Shown: positions 2,939 through 63,092, counted from the stretch's first letter. The stretch is DNA of 64,000 nt from a virus (IMGVR_UViG_3300026097_000001); one strand, 5' to 3'. Numbers and translations are program-made. Notes: generated by a model from the letters alone, not told the origin.

Positions 2939-4138
2939 TTATTTGGTTAAAACTTCTTTTAGTGCAGTTACCAGTTCCATCATCATTACATCTGTATGAT
3001 ACGGTGTAGGTGCTATCCGAAGTCTTTCTGTTCCAACTTCTACAGTTGGGCTATTGATTGCTTGTATGTATATTCCATACTCATTGAGTAGTCTATCGCT
3101 TGCTTCCTTTGCCTTAAATGCGTCGTTAACCATGACTGGGACAATATGAGTACATGCGTTTGGGTGTACTGGTATATCGTACTCTTGCAACATTTGTTTG
3201 AGTTTCTTGGCTTTCGATTGATGTTCGTCTCTTAAAGATGAATGATCCTTGAGGTAATTTATAGAGGCGAGAGCCCCTGCGCATAATACCGGTGACATAC
3301 TAGTGGTAAAGATAAATCCACTTGCAACAGATCGAATAGCATCAACAATTTCTTTATTTGCCGCAATGTAACCTCCTTGAACTCCAAATGCTTTTCCTAG
3401 AGTTCCGTTAATTATGTCTATATCATCGGCCCATAGGTTGAGTTCTTCACACATTCCTCCACCATGTTTACCGTATAATCCAACCGCATGAACTTCGTCA
3501 ATGTAAGTTAGAGCATCATACTTCTTTGCCAACGCAACGATATCTTTAATTGGACTTACATCCCCATCCATACTATAGACGGACTCAAAAACGATAACAG
3601 GATTTAGTTTTTCTTTTACGGCATTCTTTAACTGAGTCTCCAGATCTTCCATATCGTTATGTTGAAATACTTTCTTCTCTGCTCGAGAATGTTTCATTCC
3701 CATAATTAAAGAAGCATGGTTTTTATTATCTGAAATGAAACAAATGTCTGGTATGATGCGTGATAGTGCAACTAGCGACCATTCGTTTGCAACATACGCG
3801 CTTGTGAATAGCAACGCTCCGCTTCTACTGTGTAGTGAGGCCAACTCACGCTCAAGAGTTACATGATAGTGAGAAGTACCACCTATGTTTCTCGTTCCAC
3901 CGGATCCTGCGCCGGTTTGGTCAAGAGCTGTATGCATAGAGTCGATCACGAACCGGTTCTGTCCCATTCCTAGGTAATCGTTTGAGCACCAGTTAATTAT
4001 GTTCTTTGGCGCATACTTACCATACCATATAGATCGAGGAAAGTTACCACGTTCTCTCAGTATATCGTTGAAGACTCGGTAACGCCCGTCGTCTTTAAAG
4101 TCCTTTATGGTCTGATTGAAGTATTCTGAGTATTTCAT
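2939..4138 (-). CDS. hemA: 5-aminolevulinate synthase (class II PLP aminotransferase, Shemin pathway)
   Basis: 399 aa with [28 protein letters not shown] and the PLP-lysine region TLGKAFG, all characteristic of ALAS/KBL/BioF-family enzymes and best matching ALAS. Confidence 0.8.
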
Positions 4139-4144
4139 AGCTGT

Positions 4145-4200
4145 GCCTTCGCAAACAAATGTTAAATAGCTTGTATAAACATATATTTATTTGCGAAGGC
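4145..4200 (-). promoter_or_regulatory. RBS-sequestering hairpin with AATAAATA box at the 5' arm/loop junction, in the ALAS leader
   Basis: 11-bp perfect IR gccttcgcaaa/tttgcgaaggc with a 34-nt loop; the 3' arm carries SD AAGG 7 nt before the hemA ATG; the minus-strand loop begins TAAATATATG. Confidence 0.55.
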
Positions 4201-4202
4201 TT

Positions 4203-4304
4203 TCTTTAGATATGAACGATACCCAATGGATCGACAAAGATAAGGATGGACGCTATAGCCAATCCAATGACTATAGCAAAAGTTGTGTCCGTAATATTAG
4301 GCAT
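4203..4304 (-). CDS. possible 33-aa hydrophobic peptide (not in the ORF track)
   Basis: ATG at 4304..4302 then MPNITDTTFAIVIGLAIASILIFVDPLGIVHI; single TM; lies between the DUF932 gene and the ALAS leader. Confidence 0.2.
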
Positions 4305-5247
4305 CGGCCATCTCCAGTGCAAGATCCAAGGCGTCAACCTTGCGCTTTGCGTTTCCACCGAACCAGGCAGAAGCCATACGAGTATCGGCAGAACGACCCA
4401 GTTTATGGTCAGTCATATATGTAACCGCGTTGTATGCGTTCCACCATGTTCCTGGAGCAAAGTGATCGCCTGGTTGGTCCTCAACGATTGACATTGCTTC
4501 TTTTGCGTTACGAGCAAGTTCTTCTTTTTCTTTTGAAGATTTGCCGAATACAACGCCAAAGAACTGAGTCAGTTGCTCATCGGTGTAACGCTTTGATCCA
4601 AGGAACTCTGCGGCTTCTTTGAACTTCTCGACCTTGTTGTGACCGAGGCCAAGGATTTCCTTGACGCGACCCGCATCGAATACCGAGCGGTGGTTGACGC
4701 GAACAGAAGGTTGACCTGCTTCGTTAAGAGCAACTGCGAGTGTGTTGTTACAGACTACGCGTTCCATGACGAACTTGATGTCAATAGACTTACCATAGAT
4801 ATGTGGGTTGGAGAACAGGAGGTAACCTTTTACTTCATCACCATTGAACAGAGAAAATCCATCCTTAACATCTGCAAGAGCCCAGACTAACCGGCCATCC
4901 TTAAGAGAACCTGCAGTATCCATGATCATGTCGCCACCGGATACAAATTCATTAAAGAACTCAAAAGCTTCTTCATTTTGAACTGGGTTCCAACCTGGTC
5001 CTACTTGCGTAAGGATCTTTCCGTCAGTAGAACGAACCAACGCTTGTTGTCCGGTCGCAACGTTATCGCCTTTGTAGCGAATAAAGGTATCTACCTTTTC
5101 CACTCCCCAATCGAGGCCTGCTGCCTCCATCATTTGTTGAGGAGTCATGTCGTCTCCAACTGGAGTACCAAGACCATGCCAAGGAAGTCCTTTGCTTTCA
5201 CGGTATGCCATCTGTGCTTCACCGTTAACGATCTCAAGTTCGTGCAT
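4297..5247 (-). CDS. DUF932 phage/plasmid-like protein
   Basis: 316 aa opening MHELEIVNGEAQMAYRESKGLPWHGLGT, typical of the DUF932/TIGR03299 family found in phages and ICEs. Confidence 0.6.
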   Translation of the reverse strand: MHELEIVNGEAQMAYRESKGLPWHGLGTPVGDDMTPQQMMEAAGLDWGVEKVDTFIRYKGDNVATGQQALVRSTDGKILTQVGPGWNPVQNEEAFEFFNEFVSGGDMIMDTAGSLKDGRLVWALADVKDGFSLFNGDEVKGYLLFSNPHIYGKSIDIKFVMERVVCNNTLAVALNEAGQPSVRVNHRSVFDAGRVKEILGLGHNKVEKFKEAAEFLGSKRYTDEQLTQFFGVVFGKSSKEKEELARNAKEAMSIVEDQPGDHFAPGTWWNAYNAVTYMTDHKLGRSADTRMASAWFGGNAKRKVDALDLALEMADA

Positions 5248-5285
5248 TTTATATTTCCTTCAGTTTGTTTTCATCTGATATAAAC

Positions 5286-5314
5286 AATATAACTGATTCT
5301 AAACGAAATGTCAA
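5286..5314 (-). promoter_or_regulatory. early promoter cassette (sigma70-like TTGACA-17-TATATT)
   Basis: Minus strand gTTGACAtttcgtttagaatcagtTATATTg; member of the reiterated ~45-bp family; upstream of the DUF932 gene. Confidence 0.6.
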
Positions 5315-5332
5315 CAACTTTTTTCGTTTAGA

Positions 5333-5530
5333 TTAAGAATTTTCAACTCGATCACGTTGCATCTGAACGATCATTTGTAGTTCGGCATTCTCTGCTTTTT
5401 CTTGCAGTTCATCTGCGAGGTCCATGATTTTGAACGCAGGTATCTTTGAGTTAGGCCCATCAGTGCTACGAATTAGTTCACGTAGTTTTTTCACCATTTC
5501 ATAGTATTCAATCATAATGTATCCTTTCAT
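5333..5530 (-). CDS. hypothetical protein
   Basis: 65-aa ORF directly behind an early-promoter cassette. Confidence 0.35.
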   Translation of the reverse strand: MKGYIMIEYYEMVKKLRELIRSTDGPNSKIPAFKIMDLADELQEKAENAELQMIVQMQRDRVENS

Positions 5531-5541
5531 TTGATATAATT

Positions 5542-5570
5542 ATACTACACTGATTCTAAACGAATGTAAA
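5542..5570 (-). promoter_or_regulatory. early promoter cassette, variant (TTTACA-17-TAGTAT)
   Basis: Diverged copy of the conserved cassette with the same leader tcatttgatataat; upstream of 5333..5530. Confidence 0.45.
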
Positions 5571-5578
5571 GGAAAAAG

Positions 5579-5878
5579 TTAGTGGATCTCAGTAGAAATC
5601 ATTTGAATGGAATCTATCATGGCATGAGTATACTTTGCGTATCCGTTCTTCAATAGCTCAGTAACGTCTATATACTTGTCGTTTGTAGCTATCTCTATAA
5701 CAAAGAAGTTCTTTTCGTCGCCATTCATATATTCGTCTATGAACTCTTGTGCGTCTCTCTTCGTCTCAAAACTAAACGCCTTTGACAGACCAAAGACGTC
5801 ATTCTTTGCGAATACTCCATGATTCTTAAACGCGCCCAGGAAGAAACCAAGATCTTCTTCAGCTATCGTATACCGCAT
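5579..5878 (-). CDS. hypothetical protein
   Basis: 99-aa ORF in the early operon. Confidence 0.35.
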   Translation of the reverse strand: MRYTIAEEDLGFFLGAFKNHGVFAKNDVFGLSKAFSFETKRDAQEFIDEYMNGDEKNFFVIEIATNDKYIDVTELLKNGYAKYTHAMIDSIQMISTEIH

Positions 5879-5903
5879 CCAATTTACCTTTCAGTAGTTA
5901 ATC

Positions 5904-6461
5904 TTAAGCAGCAACTTCAAACCATTCCGGTACTTCTCTTTTTGTCCAAGCCATTTTAAAACGATGTTGCTTTGTTTGATAAAATTTTCTGTAGGACTCG
6001 ACTATATTATTTGGATCCATGCATTCTGGGTTTGACGTCATGGCAAGAGGTTGAGGAGTCATAGGACCGACTGGAATATTCTCAGGCAAAGCTTTGAGAA
6101 CATCGCGCAGTTGCGTATCGGTTGCATGGACCCTTTCATATCGGTATTTATATTCGTCGCAAAGTGCAGCAAAGTGGATCCAATGCCAGTTGTAGTTGTT
6201 GTTTGATTTCATAGTCCATACACTACATGGATGGTACATATGAACAGCCTTGTATAAAGTGTTCTCGCGCCAGTCTGGCATCCGCCAGTATTTAACGATG
6301 GTCTTACCGGACTTTGACGGCCTTCGCTCTAGATCTCCGTCTAGCATACGGTGAGCCGTTGATAACATCTGTGCTGATTCTACGATCATTTTCACGATAT
6401 GAGTATTGCACTGCAGTTGCGCAGATATCACCGGGTCCTTATCTAATATGAATATGTTCAT
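5904..6461 (-). CDS. conserved phage protein, function unknown
   Basis: 185 aa; N-terminal MNIFILDKDPVISAQLQCNTHIVKMIVESAQMLSTAH looks like a recurrent phage family I cannot name with confidence. Confidence 0.4.
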   Translation of the reverse strand: MNIFILDKDPVISAQLQCNTHIVKMIVESAQMLSTAHRMLDGDLERRPSKSGKTIVKYWRMPDWRENTLYKAVHMYHPCSVWTMKSNNNYNWHWIHFAALCDEYKYRYERVHATDTQLRDVLKALPENIPVGPMTPQPLAMTSNPECMDPNNIVESYRKFYQTKQHRFKMAWTKREVPEWFEVAA

Positions 6462-6646
6462 TACTTTACACCAAGAATTCCTAGCTCAACCGATTTGATA
6501 TGATTACATTTATATATCATTCTCTTCATACAGGTACACGAAAAACCGTCGTCACTCATCGTTACCTCGCAGTTACGAAAGGGCCATGATACTCCATTAA
6601 AAATATGATTTACGGTGTTAATGTATTTAGATTCAAAATACTTCAT
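6461..6646 (-). CDS. hypothetical Cys-rich small protein
   Basis: 61 aa; start/stop overlaps with both neighbours. Confidence 0.3.
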   Translation of the reverse strand: MKYFESKYINTVNHIFNGVSWPFRNCEVTMSDDGFSCTCMKRMIYKCNHIKSVELGILGVK

Positions 6647-6647
6647 C

Positions 6648-6953
6648 TTATGCCATTACCTTTTCGTACCAATCCGGGTTCTTATCTTTGAGGATAGCTA
6701 CTGGAGCCATTCCGAACATGTAAGCATTTGCATAATCTTCGACCGTATGGTTTGCAATCAGCTCTTTGAGAAACTTAGCCTTTGTGATAGGACCTTTATG
6801 CTTAAAGCGCGCAATGAAAAGATCGATGCCGGTACCAACACGACTTGGGTGAACACCTGGTTTGTCTTCATAAACAGGGCGACCTTCGTAGTCACCAGTA
6901 TATGTGAGGTATCCACCGTGGTACGAGAATTTTGTTTTGTCAAACTTTGTCAT
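6648..6953 (-). CDS. hypothetical protein
   Basis: 101 aa; first gene behind the early promoter at 6981-7009. Confidence 0.4.
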   Translation of the reverse strand: MTKFDKTKFSYHGGYLTYTGDYEGRPVYEDKPGVHPSRVGTGIDLFIARFKHKGPITKAKFLKELIANHTVEDYANAYMFGMAPVAILKDKNPDWYEKVMA

Positions 6954-6980
6954 GTTAGTTTCCTTTCATTTGATATAATC

Positions 6981-7009
6981 AATATAACTGATTCTAAATG
7001 AAATGTCAA
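6981..7009 (-). promoter_or_regulatory. early promoter cassette (TTGACA-17-TATATT)
   Basis: Full consensus copy; the TGA stop of the 7006..7677 gene lies inside the -35 hexamer; followed by the leader GATTATATCAAATGAAAGGA and the ATG of 6648..6953. Confidence 0.65.
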
Positions 7010-7677
7010 CCGTATTCATACATCTCTTTGTATTTTTTTCTTACTGAAAGGAAATGCTGCAGGTAATCATATGTGTTTACTTTAAATATCTGTGGTTCAG
7101 AACCGTCTACGGTAATTAGAATAACACCCTGTTTGATCGCTACACCGGTTCTTTCGTAGAAGGCTGCAGCATAGAAGGCCGCTTGGATGAAGTAGTTCGT
7201 AATCCATTCCTTCTTCTTTGGTTTACGAGAAGTCTTAAAGTCAATGATAGACAGTTCACCCTCGAACTCTGCGATACAGTCTACCTGACCAGCGCATTTA
7301 AGACGGTCACTATACAGAAAGGTCTCCTGCATCCATATGTTATCTACCTTTTCGTCAAGAACGTCTTTTAACTGGCCGAACGAAAATAGGTTGGCCGGCA
7401 TATGACCTTTTTGCCAATCGCTCTCGTTGTTTAAATAATCTTCGGCGAGTTTGTGAACAGCAGTACCACGTGTTGCGGCCTGAGTAGAGATCCTATTTGC
7501 CTCTTCCTCGCCTACGCGTTTACGCCATGCCTGAATTGAATCTTTGCCAAGGATAGACAGTACCGTTGTGATAGAAGGGTACGCGTTTCCTTCAGGAGTG
7601 TAATACTTTCTCCCAGTTTCTGTAGTCTTTCGAGTAATCTCTGGAAGAGTTATTCCGTGGTCTTTGTGAGTAAACAT
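7006..7677 (-). CDS. PD-(D/E)XK nuclease (Cas4/YqaJ-like exonuclease)
   Basis: 223 aa with D...EFEGELSIIDFKTS (D-ExK motif) and C-terminal QAAFYAAAF. Confidence 0.6.
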   Translation of the reverse strand: MFTHKDHGITLPEITRKTTETGRKYYTPEGNAYPSITTVLSILGKDSIQAWRKRVGEEEANRISTQAATRGTAVHKLAEDYLNNESDWQKGHMPANLFSFGQLKDVLDEKVDNIWMQETFLYSDRLKCAGQVDCIAEFEGELSIIDFKTSRKPKKKEWITNYFIQAAFYAAAFYERTGVAIKQGVILITVDGSEPQIFKVNTYDYLQHFLSVRKKYKEMYEYG

Positions 7678-7705
7678 ATCTATATTCCTTTAGTAATCTT
7701 TTCTA

Positions 7706-7734
7706 TAGTATACTAATATGAAAGAAATGTCAAC
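7706..7734 (-). promoter_or_regulatory. early promoter cassette (TTGACA-17-TACTAT)
   Basis: -35 at 7729-7734; upstream of the PD-(D/E)XK nuclease gene. Confidence 0.5.
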
Positions 7735-7739
7735 CGTTA

Positions 7740-9527
7740 TTACCCTCTTCGTCGTATACGAGGCCTTGGATAAACTCTCCTGCCGACTGTAGCAGGCGGT
7801 GGATCATCTCCTGCAAGGAGGGCATTCGCGCTCCAATTCGAAGGTATGGGATCTCCGTTGAGGGTTCGCGGCCTAAAATTTCTTGGAGGAAACATAGTAC
7901 GCCCAATAGGTCTTTGATTGATCCATTTCGCGAATCTGTTAGGAGCACCTTGTAAGCTTTGCTCATCCATTGCATCGTCTGTTCCAGTATCACTTAGCGC
8001 ATCTTTAGTCGAAAAATCGATAATCCATTGGTGCGCTTGAGCTTGGGTCATGTTAGGCCATGTTTCAGCGAGGCATGCTAGCATTCCAGCTACTTGAGGA
8101 GTAGCCATGCTCGTTCCTTGCGTTTTCGCAAGGTAGTGTGCCCCACCAGAACGAGGGTCTTGTATAGTCCCAAAATATCCACCTGCATGTACACTACTTT
8201 GCACTGTAGAGCCAACGGCAAACACGTCAACGCCGTTTCCGCAATTACTGAAATCACTCTTGTATTCTTCTTTCCATGTCCCAACGGATCCTACTACTAG
8301 AACCGGTGCATATGCTTGGCCCGAGCGGCCTCCGCCACCTCTTTGATAATAGTTTTTATAGGTTTGACCAGTTGGAAGATAGGTTACCTCGAACTCGTTG
8401 TTATAATCCACGTGGCCCTCTTGGACTTGCTTCCATCCCTCGTTACCAGCAGCGGTACAAACGATTATCCCATCGGCCATTGCATCTTGCAAATCTGCCT
8501 GCTGCGAGATCGAGTAATTTTGAAAACCAAAGCTCTGGCTGCTAGTTTTAAACCCTCTTGCCTGAAGTTCAGCAACAGTAAGAGCGCGCCCAGGTGCATA
8601 CCTGACCCCACGATAGGTGGCGGCATAGATTTGGCTAAAATTACCTTGCCCAACTGAAAGAAACGCACCGTAGCTATGATTTGATACAGTAGGATTTTTT
8701 CTACCAGTCACTGGATTAATTGGCTTTGAATTATGCCAAGCTCTTACGTAATCCCACATCGTGGTATCGTCATACCCGCACACTCCCCAGTTTGCAGTAC
8801 TCGGAAAGGCGCCTAAGCTATATACATTTGCATCTCTGGCCCAACCTTGGTTATTGCCTGCCGCGATCCCTCCAACGTGTGTCCCGTGATTACTTTGGTT
8901 AGCCAAACCATATTGGTACGTACCAGTCCCAAATCCTACATCATTCTGAAACCAATTGTACGCAACACATCTAGTCCCACCGCTTCCGTCACGATTTGCT
9001 GCAAACTCTGGGTGCGTCTGGTCCAAATGCTCGTCTACAATTAAAACGTCAACGTTTCTTCCGGATGCTGTTACGATTACATTATTATCTGCCGCCAACA
9101 GTTCAGATTCGGCTGCATTTGCATTATTTGGGTCTTGTGGTAAAAAGTTATCAAATCCCCAATTTGCCGGCGGAGTATTTCTGTTTTGGCGTAAAAGACC
9201 CCAGTTCACGTCAACCTGAGAAAGCGCTGGCCCGGACGTGAATACGTTTTTAGAAAAAACACCCTCATCTATTTTATATCCTAACGGCCGTAACGAATTT
9301 ACTACTATGTCATAAAGTTCTACGCCCCAAACTCTTTCATCGTTTTTTACTAACATTGCTTCTTCGTAAGTAAGCATGTAATGAGTATTTCTACTCGTAG
9401 GCCTTTGCGCCGAAACATCAACGGCTCTATCCGGTATATACAAAGCTCCACCAGGGGTTTGCATATCATCATAGAAATCATCTAGTTGGTTGCGATCATA
9501 GAGAGTAACTATCCATTCTCTTAACAT
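7740..9527 (-). CDS. subtilisin-like serine protease (peptidase S8)
   Basis: 595 aa with catalytic Asp (VLIVDEHLD), His (HGTHVGGIAAGN), oxyanion Asn (SNHSYG) and Ser (GTSMATPQVAGMLA); start is 3 nt after the collagen-like gene. Confidence 0.75.
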   Translation of the reverse strand: MLREWIVTLYDRNQLDDFYDDMQTPGGALYIPDRAVDVSAQRPTSRNTHYMLTYEEAMLVKNDERVWGVELYDIVVNSLRPLGYKIDEGVFSKNVFTSGPALSQVDVNWGLLRQNRNTPPANWGFDNFLPQDPNNANAAESELLAADNNVIVTASGRNVDVLIVDEHLDQTHPEFAANRDGSGGTRCVAYNWFQNDVGFGTGTYQYGLANQSNHGTHVGGIAAGNNQGWARDANVYSLGAFPSTANWGVCGYDDTTMWDYVRAWHNSKPINPVTGRKNPTVSNHSYGAFLSVGQGNFSQIYAATYRGVRYAPGRALTVAELQARGFKTSSQSFGFQNYSISQQADLQDAMADGIIVCTAAGNEGWKQVQEGHVDYNNEFEVTYLPTGQTYKNYYQRGGGGRSGQAYAPVLVVGSVGTWKEEYKSDFSNCGNGVDVFAVGSTVQSSVHAGGYFGTIQDPRSGGAHYLAKTQGTSMATPQVAGMLACLAETWPNMTQAQAHQWIIDFSTKDALSDTGTDDAMDEQSLQGAPNRFAKWINQRPIGRTMFPPRNFRPRTLNGDPIPSNWSANALLAGDDPPPATVGRRVYPRPRIRRRG

Positions 9528-9530
9528 TTA

Positions 9531-12500
9531 TTATACCTCTAATTGAAGAGCAGTAACAGTTACTTGAATGGCAGTGGTCGAACCTGACTTGTTCGTAATG
9601 GTCATTGGTATATTTGTAGTTGGCGGAACTTCGCCATTAAAACCAAAGACAGCAGGTGAAATAACAACGGTTTCAGCGCCGTTCGTTATAACTTCCAGGA
9701 TCACTCCTGCGTCTGGGTCCGGGTCCGTAAATTCGTTTCTACTCGCATCGGCAGTTCTTGCCGCAGCATTAATATATAATCTAACCCAAGCGGCTTCATC
9801 AGTTGTGATTGCGTAGACCGCGTAACCTTTAAATCCGGTTAGATTTACATCTTCGCTTGCGTCATCTGCCAAAGAAGATGTAGCTACGATCAGGTTGGTT
9901 CTTGAAGAAAGACCACCACCATCGCCACCGCCTGTGTTACCACATACATGGTTCCCTTCGTGGTAAACAGTGTATCCGTTGATCTTTACACCGTTATCAT
10001 CTGGGACTTTTAGATGTATCTCATCATTTATATCGTTGGTCATTTCAAGAGTAAGCTGAGTTGCCTCTCCTCCGCCAGTTCCTAGGTAGATCCTTGCAGT
10101 GTCACCGCTACCGCCGTATGCATCATCAGGGAAACGTATTCCACTTGTTGTTGCATATATCGTATTTGTTGTTCGAACTGAACCGTCCTCATCGACCCTA
10201 AAGATGGTATTATCTCTATTTACTGTGTCCGAATATGGATCTAGATTGTTATAGAACCCAAAGTAGTTTGAATCTTCTCCTGCGCTGTTATTATCGTCAA
10301 TAAATAGATACATTGACTGCTTCGAGTGTATTGCTACACTGTTATTCGTATCTGTTGGCTCGTCATAGTCGCAGTCTACGCAATCGATTGAGCTACCGCC
10401 ACCATCCGTTCCTTGAATACCTTGAATACCTTGAATACCTTGTGATCCACTACCACCACCGTTTTCGCGGCCTATTATATAGTTGTTTTCATCAAAGGAT
10501 GATCTCCAAGTAGTAAAGTGAGATGTCGGGTTGTTATAGAAACGACCCGGTTCTGCAATGTCATTAAATGTTGCAGCTCCTACGATCTCTTGGTAATATG
10601 GAAGATTTTCAGATGGGCCGTATACCTTACCCGACACAACATCATACACAACATTCGCCCCAAGTGAGATGCCGCTAAAAACTCCACTAAATCTTGCATC
10701 ACCTTGGCTATAAGCCATATACCCGTAAGATTTAAAGCCTCTAAACTTTTCTAAGACTGGATCACCGCTATCGTCAACGAACGTTTGATCCGTTAAATCA
10801 ATGGTGAGAGTTGAAGCTTCGCTCAATGCTGCGCTGCCAAACGGAGAAGTCTTTACAATTATTGTATCGCCTTGTCTATCCACGTCGACGATAGTAGATC
10901 CAAGCGCGGCCCATCCGCCGGTCTCAGGTACTGCCGCACTGCCATCAGCAATAATTTGCCCATCCGCCTGTTGGATGTTATATGAAACACCCCATGTGCG
11001 GCCGCCCATAGTACCGCCAGCAGTTCTAAATGCTGTTAGCGTGTATTCTCTGTAATCCGGTTGCCCAAGAGTCCCTTCCGCCGTGAATGCAAGAACAACC
11101 CCAACGGTATCGTTATCAAACTGCCCACTTCTTAAAGTAGCTGTATGGGTATAGAATGAGTACTTAAGATCTGAAACAAATCCAACTGCAGTGCCAGTGT
11201 TATTTAACCCAACGATTTCGTCGGCAACAGAATCATACTGCCATTGCGATTCGCTAACATCGGCCTCGCGTGCTGGGTAATTAGTTGTCGTGTTGTGTGA
11301 GAACCTATACCAGTCTTCAAAAATCTCCTGCGTAGTTGGAGCAGGTGGTCCGGGCTCGGTAAAGTAATCTGGCACCTCACCTTCGGAAGAAACGATAATT
11401 GGTTCTATGTTAACTAGATCGTCAAACTGAGCATTGTTTGTATCATCTTGAGTGTTATATAATACTTCACCTTCTTGGCCTATCGGCAACGGATCCCCAC
11501 CGCCCTCGCCGTCGGCGCCTTTGGAACCCTGAATACCCTGAACCGAACCCGCTTGGCCTTGAAGACCTTGGGGCCCTGCTTGTGCAATACCTTGAATACC
11601 CTGGAAACCTTGGTTTCCTTGGATGCCTTGAATACCCTGAATACCTTGCTCGCCGGTCGTACCTTGGGTTCCTTGGAATCCACGAATACCTTGGAAACCT
11701 TGACGCCCTTGTACACCTTGTGCGCCCTTTGTACCCTGGCGACCTTGGAAACCTACGCTTCCTTGTAGACCCTGATATCCCTGTGGTCCTCTTTGACCTT
11801 GAGTACCTTGGCGACCTTGTCTACCTTGACGACCCTGTTGGCCCTGAGTACCCTGAATACCCTGAACACCTTGCGATCCTTGGATACCTTGACGACCCTG
11901 ACGTCCTTGAATACCCTGTCGGCCTTGGATACCCTGGATACCTTGTCGGCCTTGAATACCCTGAATACCCTGTAGACCCTGAATACCTTGTATACCCTGA
12001 ATACCTTGAATACCCTGGATACCCTGGATACCTTGGCGTCCCTGAGTACCCTGTAAACCTTGAACGCCTTGGACGCCTTGGCTACCCTGCAGACCTTGTT
12101 GCCCGCGTATACCTTGCATACCCTGTAGACCTTGACGACCTTGGATACCTTGGCGCCCTTGTACGCCGCGAGTACCCTGAATACCCTGTATACCTTGGTT
12201 ACCTTGAGTACCTTGAACACCTTGCCCCGGTCCTCTTAATCCTTGGTTACCCTGAATACCTTGAAGACCCTGAGATCCGGTGTTTCCAGTACCTTGCACG
12301 CCTTGGCGACCGTATGTACCCTGTTGCCCAGTAGCACCTTGAGTACCTTGTTCACCTTGTATGCCCTGGTTACCTTGCGTACCCTGTAGACCCTGAACAC
12401 CCTGAATACCCTGAGGTCCAACGATATTACCGACGTTTATCCATTCACCGCCCGCGTCTGGTGTATATGTCCATAAATTATTCGTTGCCTCATCGATTAC

Positions 12501-14747
12501 AGCATCACCAGGAGAAGGATCTGGAAACGATGTTTCAAGAATAACCTGTGGGTCGAATGTCGGAGCTTGGTTAACGTCTTGTACAGATCCAAGAATCCTA
12601 AATGGATTACCTACTTTACCCTGTATACCTTGAACACCCTGCTCTCCAGTAATACCCTGTGTACCCTGAATTGCGGTACCTTGAACACCTTGGATGCCTT
12701 GGAAACCTTGGAATCCTCGATTGCCGATGATACCCTGAACACCTTGGATACCCTGTATGCCTTGTATTGCAGCACCTTGAATACCTTGAACACCCTGCTC
12801 TCCAGTGATACCTTGAATACCTTGAATACCCTGTGTACCTTGGACTCCTTGCATTCCTTGAATACCTTGGATACCCTGCGGTCCGACGATATCTCCAACG
12901 TTTATCCATTCGTTACCGTTCCATAGCCAAAGTTCATTCAGCTCTTCGTCGATTACGCCGTCGGATATGTCTGGGCTAGCAATACTAGGTCTTTCAGTTG
13001 GTGGCTGCCCATCGAGTGTTGGACCAAATGCTTCTCTTATTATTTCTTCAGGGGTACGCGCTGGAAAGTTGACGTTTACATCTTCAATAGATCCTATTAT
13101 TCGGAACGGATCTCCAGTTTTACCTTGAACGCCTTGCAGACCTTGAAGACCTTGGCTACCCTGCAGGCCTTGAACACCCTGTCCACCTTGAATACCTTGG
13201 ACGCCTTGCGATCCTTGTATACCCTGTACGCCTTGTACACCCTGCTCGCCTTGGATACCTTGTACACCTTGGTTCCCTTGAATACCTTGAATACCATCAA
13301 AACCTTGGATCCCTTGACGACCCTGCATACCCTGGATAGGAGATCCTTGCAGACCTTGAACCCCTTGCTCGCCTTGGATACCCTGAGTACCCTGAATACC
13401 TTGGATCCCTTGGACGCCTTGAATACCCTGACGACCCTGTAGACCCTGAACGCCCTGCTCGCCTTGGATACCTTGCTGGCCAGAAATTCCTTGGATACCC
13501 TGGAAGCCACGAATGCCTTGAATACCCTGGAAACCTTGGATACCCTGGACGCCTCTTAACTCTCCAACGTTTACCCAGGTACCGCCGCCGGTATAAGCCC
13601 AAAGCTCGTTTGTTGCTTCGTCAATAACAGTCTCACCAACGTTAACCGATGGGAACTGACCGTTTAATAACGTTTGTGGATTGTTAGGTGGATCTGTATT
13701 AACATCGGCTACCGCCCCAATGATTTTTAGAGCTGGGCCAAAGTTACCTTGGAGGCCTTGAGAACCTTGAAGTCCTTGCTCTCCCATAATACCTTGAACG
13801 CCCTGAACACCTTGGTTCCCTTGAATACCTTGAGTACCCTGAACGCCTTGAATGCCTTGCTCTCCGGTAAGACCTTGGAAACCTGCGCCGGTGATACCCT
13901 GAAATCCTTGGTTACCCTGAATGCCTTGCTCGCCTTGGATGCCTTGGACACCCTGTAGACCCTGTAGACCTTGAGTACCTTGCACTCCTTGTATACCCTG
14001 AAAACCTTGGATACCGAATGTTCCTTGAATACCTTGTAGACCTTGGTTACCAAATCCGGCAGTACCTTGTACACCTTGTTCTCCGGTAATACCTTGTGTA
14101 CCCTGTTCTCCTAAACCGCCGGTACCTTGAATACCCTGGTCCCCTTGAAGTCCTTGAACACCCTGAACACCTTGGATACCTTGCATACCCTGAACGCCTT
14201 GGTTTCCCTGTATTCCTTGCACACCTTGCATGCCTTGAGTACCCTGAACACCTTGTACCCCTTGAATACCTTGGAATCCCTGAACACCTTGGATACCACG
14301 TCGACCCTGTAGACCCTGTAGACCAAATTCACCGATAGTACCTTGAGTACCCTGAACGCCTTGCCAGCCTTGAATACCTTGCACGCCTTGAGTACCCTGA
14401 AGACCTTGCTCACCAGTTATACCTTGAAGACCTTGGAAACCAGTTTCGCCACGTCCTTCAATACCTTGGATACCTTGCGTACCTTGATTGCCCTTTGTAC
14501 CTTGAGTACCTTGAGTACCCTGAAGACCCTGTTCACCTTGAAGACCTTGGTTTCCTTGGAAGCCCTGAATACCCTGAATACCTTGTACGCCCTGCGCCGG
14601 ACCTTGAATACCTTGAATACCTTGAAGGCCCTGTCCACCATCGCCTGCGGACGACCTTACCCAAACGTTAGTCGTTGCGTCATACGTGAACACGACGGAT
14701 CCAATGACATATATGTCACCGTCTGCTGGATTTGTTGGAAATGCCAT
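9531..14747 (-). CDS. giant collagen-like tail-fibre protein with a globular C-terminal receptor-binding region
   Basis: 1738 aa; ~1000 aa of Gly-X-Y triplets (GIQGIQG...) interrupted by conserved ~55-aa non-collagen modules; ~650-aa non-repetitive Gly/Asp/Thr-rich C-terminus. Confidence 0.75.
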   Translation of the reverse strand: MAFPTNPADGDIYVIGSVVFTYDATTNVWVRSSAGDGGQGLQGIQGIQGPAQGVQGIQGIQGFQGNQGLQGEQGLQGTQGTQGTKGNQGTQGIQGIEGRGETGFQGLQGITGEQGLQGTQGVQGIQGWQGVQGTQGTIGEFGLQGLQGRRGIQGVQGFQGIQGVQGVQGTQGMQGVQGIQGNQGVQGMQGIQGVQGVQGLQGDQGIQGTGGLGEQGTQGITGEQGVQGTAGFGNQGLQGIQGTFGIQGFQGIQGVQGTQGLQGLQGVQGIQGEQGIQGNQGFQGITGAGFQGLTGEQGIQGVQGTQGIQGNQGVQGVQGIMGEQGLQGSQGLQGNFGPALKIIGAVADVNTDPPNNPQTLLNGQFPSVNVGETVIDEATNELWAYTGGGTWVNVGELRGVQGIQGFQGIQGIRGFQGIQGISGQQGIQGEQGVQGLQGRQGIQGVQGIQGIQGTQGIQGEQGVQGLQGSPIQGMQGRQGIQGFDGIQGIQGNQGVQGIQGEQGVQGVQGIQGSQGVQGIQGGQGVQGLQGSQGLQGLQGVQGKTGDPFRIIGSIEDVNVNFPARTPEEIIREAFGPTLDGQPPTERPSIASPDISDGVIDEELNELWLWNGNEWINVGDIVGPQGIQGIQGMQGVQGTQGIQGIQGITGEQGVQGIQGAAIQGIQGIQGVQGIIGNRGFQGFQGIQGVQGTAIQGTQGITGEQGVQGIQGKVGNPFRILGSVQDVNQAPTFDPQVILETSFPDPSPGDAVIDEATNNLWTYTPDAGGEWINVGNIVGPQGIQGVQGLQGTQGNQGIQGEQGTQGATGQQGTYGRQGVQGTGNTGSQGLQGIQGNQGLRGPGQGVQGTQGNQGIQGIQGTRGVQGRQGIQGRQGLQGMQGIRGQQGLQGSQGVQGVQGLQGTQGRQGIQGIQGIQGIQGIQGIQGLQGIQGIQGRQGIQGIQGRQGIQGRQGRQGIQGSQGVQGIQGTQGQQGRQGRQGRQGTQGQRGPQGYQGLQGSVGFQGRQGTKGAQGVQGRQGFQGIRGFQGTQGTTGEQGIQGIQGIQGNQGFQGIQGIAQAGPQGLQGQAGSVQGIQGSKGADGEGGGDPLPIGQEGEVLYNTQDDTNNAQFDDLVNIEPIIVSSEGEVPDYFTEPGPPAPTTQEIFEDWYRFSHNTTTNYPAREADVSESQWQYDSVADEIVGLNNTGTAVGFVSDLKYSFYTHTATLRSGQFDNDTVGVVLAFTAEGTLGQPDYREYTLTAFRTAGGTMGGRTWGVSYNIQQADGQIIADGSAAVPETGGWAALGSTIVDVDRQGDTIIVKTSPFGSAALSEASTLTIDLTDQTFVDDSGDPVLEKFRGFKSYGYMAYSQGDARFSGVFSGISLGANVVYDVVSGKVYGPSENLPYYQEIVGAATFNDIAEPGRFYNNPTSHFTTWRSSFDENNYIIGRENGGGSGSQGIQGIQGIQGTDGGGSSIDCVDCDYDEPTDTNNSVAIHSKQSMYLFIDDNNSAGEDSNYFGFYNNLDPYSDTVNRDNTIFRVDEDGSVRTTNTIYATTSGIRFPDDAYGGSGDTARIYLGTGGGEATQLTLEMTNDINDEIHLKVPDDNGVKINGYTVYHEGNHVCGNTGGGDGGGLSSRTNLIVATSSLADDASEDVNLTGFKGYAVYAITTDEAAWVRLYINAAARTADASRNEFTDPDPDAGVILEVITNGAETVVISPAVFGFNGEVPPTTNIPMTITNKSGSTTAIQVTVTALQLEV
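11460..14650 (-). repeat. 9-bp periodic coding repeat (Gly-X-Y codons, plus-strand ccttgRata units)
   Basis: Visible tandem ccttgaatacc/ccttggatacc periodicity; generates long shadow ORFs in all other frames. Confidence 0.8.
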
Positions 14748-14783
14748 TAAGGAGTTCCTCTTAAATTAATTCTTAAATTCATA

Positions 14784-15941
14784 TCAATTTTCCAATTTCG
14801 TAACAACAAATCTAGCCTTTGCGCGAACAGTATTATTTCCACTGCCAGTTAAAGCGGCCTGCAGTTTAATTGGGGTAGATCCTTGCCCAGCTGCACTCAA
14901 TTTTAAATCAGAAAATGACATCGTGGACCCATCAATTCCCTGAAATACTCCGCCGTTGACCACAGTATCGCCAACAAGAAACCTCCAGGTACCAGCATAA
15001 CTTTGTCCTTCGCCAGCGTTTCCAAACGAAAATTCGCCAGCGGCGTTTAATACTAGTCTCTCGTTATTTGTGTTAAGAGTTACAGACGCAATGTCTCGCC
15101 ATTCAGTGGCTGCGTTTGCTAGTGTAACAAAATCAGTAGTTTCGTTCGCGTCCACATTAATTGCACCGGCAGCCGACCCACCACCGTCAAAGATAGCAAA
15201 CATACCTTCAGTAAGCGAGTTATTTCCACCGCCACCGCCACTGGACTGCGTGACTTGAATCCTTAGGGTAATAGGAGTGCCTTGTACTAAGTCCATCGCA
15301 TAAGTGTAAGATATTGGAAGAACGCCAGGACTGTTTCCATCTTGCTTGCTCGAAACTACCGTCTGTAATGGAGCGCCGTCTTTCTCTATTCTAAATGTAG
15401 CCGACGAATTGTCTGAAGAGGAGTCATGTAGAACTGCACCTTTGAGTATGACAAGGACCTCTTGAGTTGCAGTGGGCGTAAACGTGTAAGACATCAGGGT
15501 CCCAGTACCAGTGATCGAATTACTATCCTCTGTTCGTAACGTAGGAGCGCCGCCTGACCCGTCTCCTATCACGGTAGTTGTTCCTCCACCTCCGGCTCCA
15601 ATTACTTCGACCCACGCGTTTCCATTCCATATTAATAGAGAACCTGATGCGCCGGGCGAAGTATCAAACCAACCATCCCCTATAAGCCTTACTTCGGGTT
15701 GTGTTGTAGATACAGTCGTTTTGTTACTAGGAGAGACGTCAACCCACGCATCCTCTTCTTCATACCAAGCAAACGTTCTTTGAGTGATGCCGGTGTCCAA
15801 CCACATTTGGCCGTTCACTGGTTCAAGAGGGGCAGTGTTAGCAATCGTCAGTCCTGCAAAGCCGGAGAGATGAAGGAAGTTATCATCCATCTCATCAAAG
15901 GTGAGAGCAAAACCCTTATTTCTTCTTAGTGTTAAAGCCAT
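14784..15941 (-). CDS. tail fibre / structural protein
   Basis: 385 aa; N-terminus carries the same Trp-containing beta module as the collagen-like protein (GQMWLDTGITQRTFAWYEEEDAWVDV); Gly/Thr-rich. Confidence 0.5.
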   Translation of the reverse strand: MALTLRRNKGFALTFDEMDDNFLHLSGFAGLTIANTAPLEPVNGQMWLDTGITQRTFAWYEEEDAWVDVSPSNKTTVSTTQPEVRLIGDGWFDTSPGASGSLLIWNGNAWVEVIGAGGGGTTTVIGDGSGGAPTLRTEDSNSITGTGTLMSYTFTPTATQEVLVILKGAVLHDSSSDNSSATFRIEKDGAPLQTVVSSKQDGNSPGVLPISYTYAMDLVQGTPITLRIQVTQSSGGGGGNNSLTEGMFAIFDGGGSAAGAINVDANETTDFVTLANAATEWRDIASVTLNTNNERLVLNAAGEFSFGNAGEGQSYAGTWRFLVGDTVVNGGVFQGIDGSTMSFSDLKLSAAGQGSTPIKLQAALTGSGNNTVRAKARFVVTKLEN

Positions 15942-16201
15942 TACGTAGTTTCCCCTTCGTCACTATAATATAGACCAACGTAGGCTGCATAGAGTCCTAA
16001 TGTTTCTGGACCATACGGCTGATAACCTGGGTTAGGTACAACATAATCATCTTCCAAGTACGAGAATAATATCTTTTCATCGCCGGTGATATCGTCAAAT
16101 ACGAATTGAAAGCAGAGTTCAATTAGACGCTGTTTCTCAACAGGATCCTGTTCAGCTGCAATTTGTACGAGCAGATCTTCATAATTTGGTTTCGTACTCA
16201 A
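15941..16201 (-). CDS. hypothetical protein, possibly a fibre-assembly factor
   Basis: 86 aa; overlaps the fibre gene start. Confidence 0.35.
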   Translation of the reverse strand: MSTKPNYEDLLVQIAAEQDPVEKQRLIELCFQFVFDDITGDEKILFSYLEDDYVVPNPGYQPYGPETLGLYAAYVGLYYSDEGETT

Positions 16202-16203
16202 CT

Positions 16204-16512
16204 CTATCCTCCAGCGAATACTTTACCAGAGCCAGCCTGAGCAGCGTTTCCGGGCCAAGACCCATGACCACCTGTAGTGTCGAGTCTTCTATGCACGCCA
16301 AATCCTTGCGCAAAAACTTTCGTTGATGCGCCTACGGCAGGATCTCCGCAAGCGGTCTTATCACCCTTGACAATAGCCTTGCGAGTCTCAACAAAAACCT
16401 TTTCTTGTTTTGATGAGTTATATGGAGTTTGGTGAAATGGGTTTGGCGTAGGAGACGCGTGACCATAATGGCGGTCTACTCTATCTCTTACAATTCCTTT
16501 GCCTTCGCTCAT
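16204..16512 (-). CDS. PAAR-repeat-like tail-spike tip protein
   Basis: 102 aa; GDKTACGDPAVGASTKVFAQGFGVHRRLDTTGGHG resembles the PAAR/gp5.4 motif. Confidence 0.45.
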   Translation of the reverse strand: MSEGKGIVRDRVDRHYGHASPTPNPFHQTPYNSSKQEKVFVETRKAIVKGDKTACGDPAVGASTKVFAQGFGVHRRLDTTGGHGSWPGNAAQAGSGKVFAGG

Positions 16513-16518
16513 AATAAT

Positions 16519-16553
16519 GGTGCCTCTTTTACTTATATTTATAAAGAGGCACC
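16519..16553 (-). promoter_or_regulatory. RBS-sequestering hairpin with TATAAATA late-promoter box at the 5' arm/loop junction (T4 gene e-type switch)
   Basis: 11-bp perfect stem ggtgcctcttt/aaagaggcacc with a 13-nt loop; the 3' arm carries SD AAAGAGG 9 nt before the ATG of the PAAR-like gene; minus-strand loop reads ATAAATATAAGTA. Confidence 0.6.
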
Positions 16554-17612: not shown

Positions 17613-17632
17613 AGGCGACCCTATAGGCCGCC
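17613..17632 (-). terminator. rho-independent terminator
   Basis: Minus strand GGCGGCC-TATAG-GGTCGCC (one G.U pair) followed by TTTATTATT; sits after the HAD hydrolase gene. Confidence 0.5.
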
Positions 17633-17668
17633 ATCTCATAATATAATATGACCTATTCTCAAGTCTAT

Positions 17669-18247
17669 TTATACAATCATTTCGTAGATTTCCTTCCAGT
17701 TCGCAACTTTTTGTGCTGGACCTACATAATTTTTATTGTGTGAATGTTCGATAAGCATTGAGTTTAGACCAAGTTTAATTCCTAGGTCAGCATTACTTTC
17801 CTTATCTTCTACCCAGACGCAGCCGGTATCACGATAAGGCTCAAGGGCTTCATCCTTGTCCCCACCACATTCAAGGCAGATAACTTCTTCAAAGACCTTC
17901 TTGCCGAAGATGGCTTCAAGGTTCTTTTTACGCAGTTTACCTGCATACTTATCAGTAGACAGAGACGTAATGCAATGAAATACATATCCATGATCTTCGT
18001 GTAACTTACGAACGTACTTAACGGCGTCTCGGAATGGAGTTAACCAACCAATTGCAGCAGAGCAGTTGAAGTATTCACACATCTGCTTTGCTTCAAAGGA
18101 TGTTATGTCAAAGGTCTTACCCATATCATATTCATTTTCAAGGATTGGGTGATAACCACGAGCGGCCATCCATTTATAGAAGGAGTACTGCCAATCGAGC
18201 AATACACCATCGCAATCTACAAGGATTAGTTTTTCGTTTAGTTTCAT
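17669..18247 (-). CDS. HAD-superfamily phosphatase / 5'(3')-deoxyribonucleotidase-like
   Basis: 192 aa; motif I LILVDCDGVLLDW (DxDG) at the N-terminus. Confidence 0.55.
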   Translation of the reverse strand: MKLNEKLILVDCDGVLLDWQYSFYKWMAARGYHPILENEYDMGKTFDITSFEAKQMCEYFNCSAAIGWLTPFRDAVKYVRKLHEDHGYVFHCITSLSTDKYAGKLRKKNLEAIFGKKVFEEVICLECGGDKDEALEPYRDTGCVWVEDKESNADLGIKLGLNSMLIEHSHNKNYVGPAQKVANWKEIYEMIV

Positions 18248-18980: not shown

Positions 18981-19014
18981 TGTATTGATTCCTTTTGTTT
19001 TACCTTATAGAATC

Positions 19015-19043
19015 AATATAACGCGTTTTACACCAAATGTCAA
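19015..19043 (-). promoter_or_regulatory. early promoter cassette (TTGACA-17-TATATT)
   Basis: Consensus -35/-10 upstream of 18591..18980. Confidence 0.55.
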
Positions 19044-23429: not shown

Positions 23430-23458
23430 AATATAACATAGTCGAGTGTAAATGTCAA
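23430..23458 (-). promoter_or_regulatory. early promoter cassette (TTGACA-17-TATATT)
   Basis: The TGA of the 23455..23871 gene lies inside the -35; upstream of 23151..23396. Confidence 0.55.
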
Positions 23459-23871
23459 CCTTTCTTTAAGCTTTTTACGTGATTCCTATGTATACGGCAA
23501 GAGATAATGCCATTGTAGTAAGTATCATCGAGTAATACGTTTCGATCAAACTGGACCTTCGCTTCCAAGTATCCCATTTCACCCTTTGTGTTACAGAGAT
23601 GTAGTATCTCGCGAATAAAATTATCTCTTCCGTGTTCCTCTACCAACATCTTTACCTCGTCAGACGAACCAAAGTAATCCTGCCAATCGGTCTCGACAAC
23701 TTTAATTCTTCTACGAGTTTTCCCCTTTAACGGAGGAAGTCTTCTTTTTGATTTGAAAAGTTTTTTTCCAACGTACTTCTTTCCGTTGGACTTATCGGTG
23801 ATTACATATACAAACCCCATGTAATCACCAATCATTTCACTTGTAAATTCTTTATCTTCGTAGAGCCACAT
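23455..23871 (-). CDS. GIY-YIG-like nuclease domain protein
   Basis: 138 aa; GFVYVITDKSNGKKYVGKK matches the GIY-x10-YIG core. Confidence 0.4.
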   Translation of the reverse strand: MWLYEDKEFTSEMIGDYMGFVYVITDKSNGKKYVGKKLFKSKRRLPPLKGKTRRRIKVVETDWQDYFGSSDEVKMLVEEHGRDNFIREILHLCNTKGEMGYLEAKVQFDRNVLLDDTYYNGIISCRIHRNHVKSLKKG

Positions 23872-28036: not shown

Positions 28037-28060
28037 AGTGTATCTCCTTTTGATATAATT

Positions 28061-28089
28061 AATATACTATAAGGAGATACGAATGTCAA
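28061..28089 (-). promoter_or_regulatory. early promoter cassette (TTGACA-17-TATATT)
   Basis: Upstream of 27818..28036, with the conserved leader ttttgatataat. Confidence 0.55.
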
Positions 28090-62649: not shown

Positions 62650-62847
62650 CTACTGTAGTTTTTTCATTTCAAGGATGCAGTTCTTAGCTGCTTTATGATA
62701 GCCCAAGCGGGTTAATTCAGAGGCAGATCTTGCATATCCTGCTATCATAAATGCATTGTTTATCTTGGCCAAGAATTTTTTAAACAAAGAAGGTCTTGAC
62801 GCCGGTATATGAATTGTTTCTGTATAAAAAGCCATAATTACACCCAA
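62650..62847 (-). CDS. hypothetical protein
   Basis: 65-aa ORF. Confidence 0.3.
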   Translation of the reverse strand: MGVIMAFYTETIHIPASRPSLFKKFLAKINNAFMIAGYARSASELTRLGYHKAAKNCILEMKKLQ

Positions 62848-63092
62848 CCTTTTAGGTTACGGTTTACTTTTGTGCTTGGATATTCTCTATGAAATTTTTC
62901 ATTTGCAATAGCATAGATATCCCCACGTGAGATACCCATATCATTGAGTTCGCGGTTTGATAGAGATGATAGTTCGCTGATTGTTTTATTAACTTGCTTT
63001 CTGTGTTGATAGTAACTTACCAAACCTGAGAAGATATTGGATACGAAAGAAAAGTCAAAGAGTGCTTTTGTATTTTGTAATGTGTGGCTCAT
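62838..63092 (-). CDS. hypothetical protein
   Basis: 84-aa ORF; its translation start is embedded in the 63095-63147 hairpin. Confidence 0.3.
   Translation of the reverse strand: MSHTLQNTKALFDFSFVSNIFSGLVSYYQHRKQVNKTISELSSLSNRELNDMGISRGDIYAIANEKFHREYPSTKVNRNLKGWV

Follow-up and report, generated by a model that had tools for sequence, protein, structure and literature searches.

In bacteriophage T4, late transcription starts from promoters with an 8-bp TATA box, which precedes the start site by about one turn of the helix (PMC2988020). As reviewed in PMC3014915, the T4 genes e, soc, and 49 carry a leader hairpin that hides the ribosome-binding site (RBS), and transcripts from a late promoter nested in the leader lack the 5' strand of this hairpin and are translated. 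Hairpins of the same type are described for the homing endonucleases I-TevI, I-TevII, I-TevIII, and segB of T4 and mobE of Aeh1 (PMC2988022), and in marine metagenomes, free-standing endonuclease genes have been reported to be preceded by TATAAATA-containing hairpins (Dassa et al. 2009, PMC2677866). The accepted late promoter motif of cyanomyoviruses, which all encode gp55, gp33, and gp45, is NATAAATA (PMC2984593). T4-like phages are also known to carry PeSL cassettes, that is, stem-loops combined with promoters; their hairpins have G/C-rich stems, keep both arms inside the promoter, and act as terminators (PMC2839356, PMC4122927).

Here, we analysed a 64-kb stretch of viral DNA (hereafter the window, meaning this whole stretch), for which a preliminary description had proposed that four gene leaders fold into hairpins that bury the Shine-Dalgarno (SD) sequence and carry the late-promoter-like box [TA]ATAAATA, as in T4 genes e and soc. 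Its account of these two T4 genes agrees with PMC3014915. All four hairpins were found on the coding strand, with the box present in the sequence and the SD paired in the predicted folds at every locus. Judged from sequence and from the comparison with relatives, the four leaders are likely to be promoter-gated translational insulators of the T4 e/soc/I-TevI type.

Results

Phage lineage and transcription apparatus

A megablast search of positions 3000–9000 against 50,697 phage records gave no match, and the identity of the phage therefore had to come from its proteins. These are 50–56% identical to proteins of the Sinorhizobium phages phiM12, phiM7, and phiN3, Methylophilales phage Melnitz, and Pelagibacter phage HTVC008M, of which Melnitz and HTVC008M are classified in the Kyanoviridae (T4-like cyanophages and relatives). 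On the evidence of its proteins, the phage is a distant, uncultured marine member of the T4 superfamily of myoviruses, and its hosts are probably alphaproteobacteria. The T4-type early functions encoded in the window include nrdA/B, td, frd, gp61 primase, dda helicase, RNA ligase, pnk, a dNMP kinase, and exonucleases; PhoH, a sugar-modification island, lysis genes, and one structural block are present as well. Most of the window belongs to the early region of a larger genome. Its ORFs lie nearly all on the minus strand, which is the coding strand on which the hairpins are read, and all features below are given on this strand. The early units are marked by an extended sigma-70-type promoter, TTGACAtttcgtttagaatcagtTATATT, of which the coding strand has about 15 copies. 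Searches of the whole window with the Rfam covariance models (gathering threshold) returned 0 matches, and a tRNA scan found nothing.

Melnitz, the nearest cultured relative, encodes gp55, gp33, and gp45. Neither gp55 nor gp33 had a match among the approximately 55 window proteins scanned; judging from the relatives, gp55 is presumably encoded in this phage's genome by a gene that is not in the 64-kb window. A scan with Melnitz gp55 retrieved 80 contigs, which belong to other lineages and do not include the 182-kb contig that carries a variant of the L2 hairpin described below.

Four leaders with SD-pairing hairpins

The first hairpin (L1, 4145–4200) reads GCCTTCGCAAA + 34 nt + TTTGCGAAGGC + acagct ATG and precedes the gene for 5-aminolevulinate synthase (ALAS; 2939..4138), which was assigned by TIGR01821 (558.7 bits, cutoff 338.6) and Pfam Aminotran_1_2. 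Its 5' arm (4200–4190) and 3' arm (4155–4145) form a perfect 11-bp stem that extends to 16 bp with one G-U pair. The SD GAAGG occupies 4150–4146, the ATG 4138–4136, and the late-promoter-like box AATAAATA 4191–4184; the predicted late start, at about 4178, falls within the loop. The second hairpin (L2, 16518–16554) reads TGGTGCCTCTTT + 13 nt + AAAGAGGCACCA + ttatt ATG and stands ahead of a PAAR/gp5.4-like gene. Its arms (5' arm 16554–16543, 3' arm 16529–16518) form a 12-bp stem, with the SD GAGG at 16526–16523, the ATG at 16512–16510, and a perfect TATAAATA box at 16543–16536; the predicted late start is the last base of the loop or the first base of the 3' arm.

The third hairpin (L3, 63095–63147), which reads GTGTTCTCCTTAA + 27 nt + TTAAGGAGAACAC + ac ATG, stands in front of a DUF1127 gene (62838–63092). 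Here, a 13-bp stem is formed by a 5' arm at 63147–63135 and a 3' arm at 63107–63095, the SD AAGGAG lies at 63105–63100, the ATG at 63092–63090, and the box AATAAATA at 63136–63129 is fused to the anti-SD arm (CTCCTTAATAAATA). The fourth hairpin (L4, 23875–23897) reads ATATCCTT + 7 nt + AAGGATAT + att ATG and precedes the gene for a free-standing SegE-like GIY-YIG endonuclease (23455–23871). Its arms, at 23897–23890 and 23882–23875, form a stem of 8 bp, an extension of which can pair the AUG; the SD is AAGGA, the ATG occupies 23871–23869, and the box AATAAATA lies at 23902–23895.

The extents and stem lengths first reported for L1 and L3 hold, and so does the weaker 8-bp stem of L4. For L2, the hairpin and the perfect box were recovered, with a larger extent and a longer stem than the 16519–16553 and 11 bp originally given. 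The SD lies within the 3' arm at every locus, at a distance of 6–10 nt from the ATG and not 7–9 nt. The box was said to sit exactly at the junction of the 5' arm and the loop. At L1–L3, it starts with the last 1–2 bases of the 5' arm and continues into the loop, thus straddling the junction, and at L4 it overlaps the 5' edge of the 5' arm, outside the loop. The predicted late starts, 5–7 nt past the box, fall beyond the 5' arm at all four loci. The loops span 7–34 nt, and the 3' arms are followed by the tails ACAGCTATG, TTATTATG, ACATG, and ATTATG at L1 to L4, respectively. Apart from the anti-SD/SD core, the arm sequences are unrelated among the four loci, which indicates that each hairpin arose on its own and that they do not form a dispersed repeat. 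A late box does not require a hairpin, since the boxes at 54330, 46626, and 21138 precede genes without any hairpin. No such hairpin was found at the endolysin gene of the window (47792–48643).

Folding and frequency of the hairpins

The preliminary description had named the folding energies of the four leaders as a check on its proposal. The hairpins were the predicted minimum-energy folds, with −23.0 (L1), −21.2 (L2), −24.2 (L3), and −12.1 kcal/mol (L4) and z-scores against dinucleotide shuffles of −5.36, −5.32, −7.40, and −5.34, respectively; none of 200 shuffles folded as well at any of the four loci. The accessibility of the SD was expressed as its mean unpaired probability and compared between a 140-nt read-through RNA and RNAs starting 5–7 nt past the box. 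In the predicted folds, this probability was 0.16 in the read-through RNA versus 0.50 in the box-initiated RNA at L1, 0.01 versus 0.70 at L2, 0.00 versus 0.74 at L3, and 0.31 versus 0.87 at L4. Both halves of the proposed switch are thus reproduced by the predictions: the SD is paired in the read-through folds at all four loci, and a late RNA devoid of the 5' arm would have an open SD. T4 gene e (NC_000866) served as a positive control in the same script and gave 0.30 for the read-through RNA and 0.41–0.86 for the box-initiated RNAs.

Next to the folds stand counts of Watson-Crick stems ending at most 12 nt before the start, taken at 112 gene starts and at 1391 other ATGs. Stems of at least 9 bp occurred at 6 of the gene starts versus 10 of the other ATGs (Fisher p = 6e-4), and stems of at least 12 bp at 4 versus 1 (Fisher p = 1.4e-4). 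A 14-bp stem upstream of a nominal TTG start at 58930 was excluded, as it lies inside the preceding ORF and this is probably no real start. The motif [TA]ATAAATA is found 17 times on the coding strand versus 3 times on the other strand. We defined the gating geometry as an arrangement in which transcription beginning about 6 nt past the box would leave out the 5' arm and still include the SD; 4 of the 17 boxes stand in this geometry versus 0.41 expected, a result that holds at the motif level (binomial p = 6e-4). By itself, L4 with its 8 bp is below significance, as 2.6% of the control ATGs reach its score, and the case for it is carried by the comparative data. A pooled scan of the fetched loci, illustrative in that its sample is biased by loci having been fetched with the tested genes themselves, gave 10 box-SD hairpins versus 0–2 for four scrambled boxes, and 9 for a fifth control in which the box was shifted by one base and overlapped the true box.

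Genomic context and relatives of the four leaders

L2 lies between PhoH and a 9-kb structural block that ends at an early promoter at 7733. This block (7740..16512; PHROG and Pfam matches) contains the PAAR-like gene, ORFs of 86 and 385 aa, a 1738-aa tail-fibre protein, and an S8 peptidase/tail protein. By its gene content, it is probably a late structural operon driven from L2, and the perfect TATAAATA found there is as expected for a late operon. For PhoH, no convincing early promoter was found, and a terminator-like hairpin lies upstream of L2 at 17632–17614. Two lineages with the same PhoH-PAAR synteny, at protein identities of 92% and 85%, keep both TATAAATA and the hairpin. Across the three variants, 13 of 13 pairs are kept, with 100% of the cells paired and 3 pairs changed on both strands. 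A metagenome scan with the PAAR protein returned no hairpin variants beyond the two already known (L239 and L241), so that the covariation sample at L2 consists of three sequences. Melnitz and other more distant relatives have the PAAR gene immediately behind the late gene gp5 and show no hairpin, as an insulator role predicts.

At L3, the upstream neighbour is a virion structural gene (phrog_1645) and not an early gene. Among the relatives, this upstream structural gene is also present in L153 (81% aa identity to the window), and the downstream genes are present in L150/151 (73% and 44%); the DUF1127 proteins of L153 and L150/151 are only 40–53% identical to that of the window. L148/149 have no flanking-gene match to the window, and their leader closely resembles that of L152/153. 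In the window, L150, L148, and L152, the anti-SD arm is fused to AATAAATA and paired with the SD across 27–66 nt, through stems of 13, 13, 9, and 12 bp, respectively, whose outer pairs differ.

L4 stands at the end of an early unit whose promoter is at 24538, and no terminator was predicted between the two; a further early promoter follows directly after the endonuclease gene, at 23458. The box is present in 23 of 43 distinct SegE upstream regions. In the nearest homologues (L159, L160, and L162), both the box and an SD hairpin occur, with different stem sequences. In many SegE homologues, a mere 5 nt separate the box from the ATG, so that a late mRNA would have almost no leader; the consulted passages of the reviews of T4-type hairpins make no mention of such an arrangement. 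Taken over these comparisons, changes on both strands in the relatives leave the predicted hairpin pairing at L2, L3, and L4 intact.

L1 is downstream of an early promoter at 5314 and a DUF932 gene, with no predicted minus-strand terminator between. We compared 80 loci of ALAS relatives, most of which have the ALAS gene directly after the nrd genes without a spacer. The closest ones (L064–L069) conserve the box and a leader of about 40 nt; the 5' arm and hence the stem, which would have been expected there, were not found in them. The L1 stem thus appears to be a recent, lineage-specific acquisition, and, being recent, it could be less important. A weaker, G-U-rich pairing of the box region with GGTGG, which L064/L065 can form, was not counted as conservation. 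In L066–L069, a strong terminator-like hairpin lies upstream of the box, which may be an alternative route to the same insulation.

The same design on early promoters

Two loci with the same design on early promoters had been overlooked in the preliminary description. At the first (28040..28089), the −35 element TTGACA lies at 28089–28084, the −10 element TATATT at 28066–28061, and the ATG at 28036. The 5' arm (GTATCTCCTT, 28080–28071) fills the spacer between −35 and −10, the −10 element is in the loop, and the 3' arm (AAGGAGATAC, 28049–28040) ends 3 nt before the ATG; the fold has −16.5 kcal/mol (z −4.37). At the second (18983..19043), the −35 element lies at 19043–19038, the −10 element TATATT at 19020–19015, and the ATG at 18980. 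There, the 5' arm (TATTGATTCT, 19018–19009) overlaps the −10 element and pairs with a 3' arm at 18992–18983 (GGAATCAATA), giving −13.0 kcal/mol (z −5.20). As read from these positions, the gene's own early transcript would start past the 5' arm at both loci.

Homologues of both loci were compared as well. Those of the first locus in L325, L327, and L330 also have an anti-SD arm within the promoter spacer. For the second, L337 and L355 keep the stem with a compensatory T-A to G-C change relative to the window, and L339, L343, L351, and L356 have other anti-SD arms, within the promoter or immediately ahead of it. Across the two homologue sets, the anti-SD arms lie just before the −35 element, in the spacer, or over the −10 element. 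L319 carries a copy of the 72-aa gene at the first locus (99% aa identity) with a different promoter cassette and no 5' arm. Downstream of a point just 3' of the −10 element, the window and L319 have identical sequences, and upstream of it they are unrelated, which shows that the arm belongs to the promoter side and is losable by cassette exchange.

A weak 8-bp complementarity, TTTCGTTT/AAATGAAA, in a repeated early-promoter cassette was left unclaimed, as the stem is weak and its copies are homologous repeats; it may represent the same design in diluted form. The window also contains a PeSL-like hairpin at 5298–5332 with TTGACA in its loop.

Discussion

We propose that the four hairpins tie the translation of a gene to the promoter from which its transcript comes. 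On a transcript entering from upstream, the anti-SD 5' arm would pair with the RBS, at L4 also with the AUG, and would block 30S binding. The gp55-type box is fused to or overlaps the 5' arm, and RNA polymerase would start about 6 nt downstream of it, so that the resulting mRNA would be free of the 5' arm and have an open SD. The gene would then be translated only from its own late promoter. We infer from the sequences that the boxes fire as late promoters, where the transcripts start, and that the pairing lowers translation.

The consequence would differ among the loci. At L1 (ALAS), at L4 (SegE-like), and probably at L2 (the PAAR/tail operon after PhoH), translation would be delayed to the late period despite early read-through RNA. 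The description of genes sitting among early genes fits L1, and L4 likewise lies downstream of a strong early promoter (5314 for L1 and 24538 for L4); it does not fit L3. As L3 follows a structural, that is, late gene, late-versus-early timing cannot be its rationale, and the hairpin would uncouple the DUF1127 gene from read-through transcripts in general. At the two early-promoter loci, translation would be restricted to the gene's own early transcripts.

Among the other explanations, the one that survives best, quite unlikely as it is, holds that the hairpins attenuate translation independently of any promoter, the box not being a functional one; expression would be constitutively low, or the hairpins would be opened only by ribosomes terminating on the upstream gene. 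The PhoH stop codon lies 7 nt before the L2 5' arm and an upstream stop codon abuts the extended L4 stem. With upstream stops at 0–7 nt from the 5' arm at L2 and L4, a terminating ribosome could partly open the stem there, and coupling is possible as a modifier at these two loci. In addition, the DUF1127 homologues L156–L158 and the SegE homologues L163 and L168, the latter two with different stems, have SD hairpins without a recognisable box. However, the nearest upstream stop is 97 nt from the 5' arm at L1 and 70 nt at L3, so that coupling cannot open these two stems. The box is also invariant while the adjoining bases change (TATAAATA is the same in the PAAR relatives L003–L008, L239, and L241), and coupling leaves both the strand bias of the box and the excess of boxes in gating geometry unexplained.

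It is very unlikely that the hairpins are instead terminators or attenuators of the upstream units, with the late box restarting transcription as in a PeSL-type cassette and the SD overlap a by-product of tight packing. They are intergenic and stable, PeSL cassettes are known in T4-like phages, the L1 relatives carry a terminator-like hairpin upstream of the box, and the hairpin at 5298–5332 in the window is PeSL-like. Nevertheless, none of the four hairpins was reported by the intrinsic terminator scan and no T-run follows any of their 3' arms; for want of T-runs, the terminator hypothesis was rejected for L1–L4. Loops of 13–34 nt are atypical for terminators as well, the 3' arm is always the SD and the 5' arm always the anti-SD, and the complementarity in relatives tracks the SD region.

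We consider it highly improbable that the inverted repeats act as DNA, either as operators beside the promoter that bind a dimeric regulator or as recombination hot spots for cassette shuffling. Promoter cassettes have been swapped by recombination in this lineage, as between the window and L319, and I-TevI autoregulates through an operator overlapping its late promoter (PMC2988022). The arms, however, are unrelated between loci and spaced 7–34 nt apart, which is incompatible with one DNA-binding protein, and the relatives conserve complementarity, including G-U pairs that form only in RNA, and not sequence. Chance, by which A/T-rich intergenic DNA and purine-rich SDs would yield accidental complementarity and accidental TATAAATA-like strings, can draw on the A/T-richness of the intergenic regions and on the 8-bp stem of L4, whose score 2.6% of the control ATGs reach, but it is hardly credible in view of the shuffles, the Fisher and binomial p values of about 1e-4 to 6e-4, and the covariation and recurrence in relatives at three loci.

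Promoter-gated translation may extend beyond late genes. It is conceivable, though we hold it only tentatively, that "translate only from the own promoter" is a general design rule in this marine T4-like lineage and not a late-gene speciality, with anti-SD arms placed in whichever promoter serves the gene and re-evolved at each recombinational cassette swap. If this is true, late boxes would give late-only translation, and sigma-70-type promoters would give early-only translation that ends at early shut-off despite read-through RNA. The early-promoter variant, if confirmed, would thereby widen late gating to transcript-specific translation in general.

The promoter-gated RBS hairpin of T4 appears to operate in a very distant marine branch, where it seems to have been re-invented at unrelated genes. 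It predicts that ALAS, an auxiliary metabolic gene, and DUF1127 are expressed either late or from their own promoter only, a timing that bears on the role of auxiliary genes during infection. For annotation, a gene located in an "early" region need not be expressed early. For synthetic biology, the design would offer a compact insulator part.

Compared with PeSLs, the hairpins described here are likewise stem-loops nested in promoters (between −35 and −10 or over −10) directly upstream of the SD and start codon, and their cassettes are likewise shuffled by recombination, as the window and L319 illustrate. They differ in that the SD of the downstream gene serves as the 3' arm, each locus has arms of its own, no T-run comes after the stem, and 4 of the 6 loci use a late promoter and not sigma-70. 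In the window, only the hairpin at 5298–5332 resembles a PeSL; the four hairpins at L1–L4 have a late box and no sigma-70 promoter.

The comparison with homing endonucleases concerns L4, which likewise precedes a free-standing GIY-YIG endonuclease in an early unit and combines a late box with an SD hairpin, as do many of its metagenomic homologues. It belongs to a different endonuclease lineage and a different genomic site. As PMC2677866 reports such endonuclease hairpins, L4 is essentially already described.

The closest likeness is to T4 e, soc, and 49, in which the SD and/or the AUG is paired on upstream transcripts and TATAAATA lies in or beside the 5' strand. Examined with the same script, T4 e has its box overlapping the 5' arm, an anti-SD CCTTC, and the SD in the 3' arm, which is the geometry found in the window. 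In contrast to the T4 genes, the gated genes here are ALAS, a PAAR-led tail operon, and DUF1127; the proteins of the window are about 55% identical in amino acids to those of phiM12 and Melnitz, without a DNA match; and the stems are longer and perfect (11–13 bp), the loops are larger, and the hairpins are predicted from sequence. No early-promoter version of the RBS hairpin was found in the T4 literature consulted. Overall, L1–L3 represent the known T4 mechanism at new genes in a distant lineage, the mechanism itself not being new, and the early-promoter variant is the newest element here.

Early-promoter cassettes and their exchange

The extended early-promoter cassette TTGACAtttcgtttagaatcagtTATATT is present in about 15 copies on the minus strand of the window, located at 38866, 36200, 31525, 30771, 28089, 24538, 23458, 19043, 18587, 7733, 7009, 5314 and other positions. 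Many of these copies are followed by a conserved leader, atatcAAATGAAAGGA, within which AAATGAAA is complementary to the cassette spacer TTTC(G/A)TTT. This complementarity may be a weak built-in form of the anti-SD design, in which a 5′ arm in the promoter pairs with the Shine-Dalgarno of the gene that it precedes.

The 72-aa gene behind the promoter at 28089 was found to be 99% identical to a gene in another contig (locus L319; 28040–28220 of the window was compared with 417–617 of L319). The DNA identity between the two starts just 3′ of the −10 element, while the upstream regions are wholly unlike, and the L319 copy has another promoter family there, tgcattttaggggTTTACA. Judged from this alignment, it looks like recombination at the promoter swapped the promoter cassettes.

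Structures within and ahead of SegE-like endonuclease genes, and inside other ORFs

A perfect 11-bp hairpin was found within the SegE-like ORF (23797–23829, minus strand), whose arms correspond to the codons on either side of the GIY motif (GDY...VIT). This hairpin is kept in the homologous loci L159 and L163, where compensatory substitutions alter the amino acids (Y/V to S/R); this suggests that the endonuclease gene contains a structure under selection as RNA or DNA. In many other SegE-like genes (loci L187 and L192–L206), AATAAATA is found some 13 nt before the ATG and ends just 5 nt ahead of it, implying that their late mRNAs would be near-leaderless. Furthermore, the box region of these homologues is able to pair with codons of the GFVY motif, which lie about 70 nt further downstream, showing apparent covariation (GATTC/GGATT versus GAACC/GGTTT).

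Two more stems lie inside minus-strand ORFs: a 14-bp stem with one G-U pair and a loop of 39 nt in an ORF of the sugar-modification island (58934–59000), and a perfect 11-bp stem with a loop of 38 nt in the gene after DUF1127 (62692–62751).

Phage-encoded ALAS, and split or partial ORFs

The minus-strand gene at 2939–4138 encodes a 5-aminolevulinate synthase (ALAS), which scores 558.7 bits with TIGR01821, a model whose cutoff is 338.6. Its homologues were found in at least 291 stretches of IMG/VR viral contigs, showing 68–90% amino acid identity and often having ribonucleotide reductase genes immediately upstream. Phage ALAS is an abundant haem-pathway auxiliary gene in marine T4-like phages.

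Also on the minus strand, a kinase (phrog_10255; 1724–2555) is divided between two overlapping ORFs, with 2127–2555 covering profile positions 2–118 and 1724–2167 covering positions 123–228; this split could stem from programmed recoding, a frameshift or a sequencing error, or mark a pseudogene. At 63218–63931 (minus strand), the virion structural protein (phrog_1645) matches only the C-terminal 237 aa of its 435-aa homologue at locus L153 (81% identity), its N-terminal part being either a separate ORF that extends beyond the window end or lost.

Terminator-like and promoter-bearing hairpins

The minus-strand stretch 17614–17673 opens with a perfect TATAAATA at 17673; some 40 nt beyond it comes the region's best terminator-like hairpin, GGCGGCCTATAGGGTCGCC + TTTATTATT. 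Together, they could give rise to a late RNA only about 50 nt long. Another perfect hairpin (11 bp, TCTAAACGAAA/TTTCGTTTAGA; 5298–5332, minus strand) holds in its loop the −35 element of the 5314 early promoter, TTGACA, and resembles the PeSL (promoter-early stem-loop) terminator-promoter cassettes of T4-like phages.
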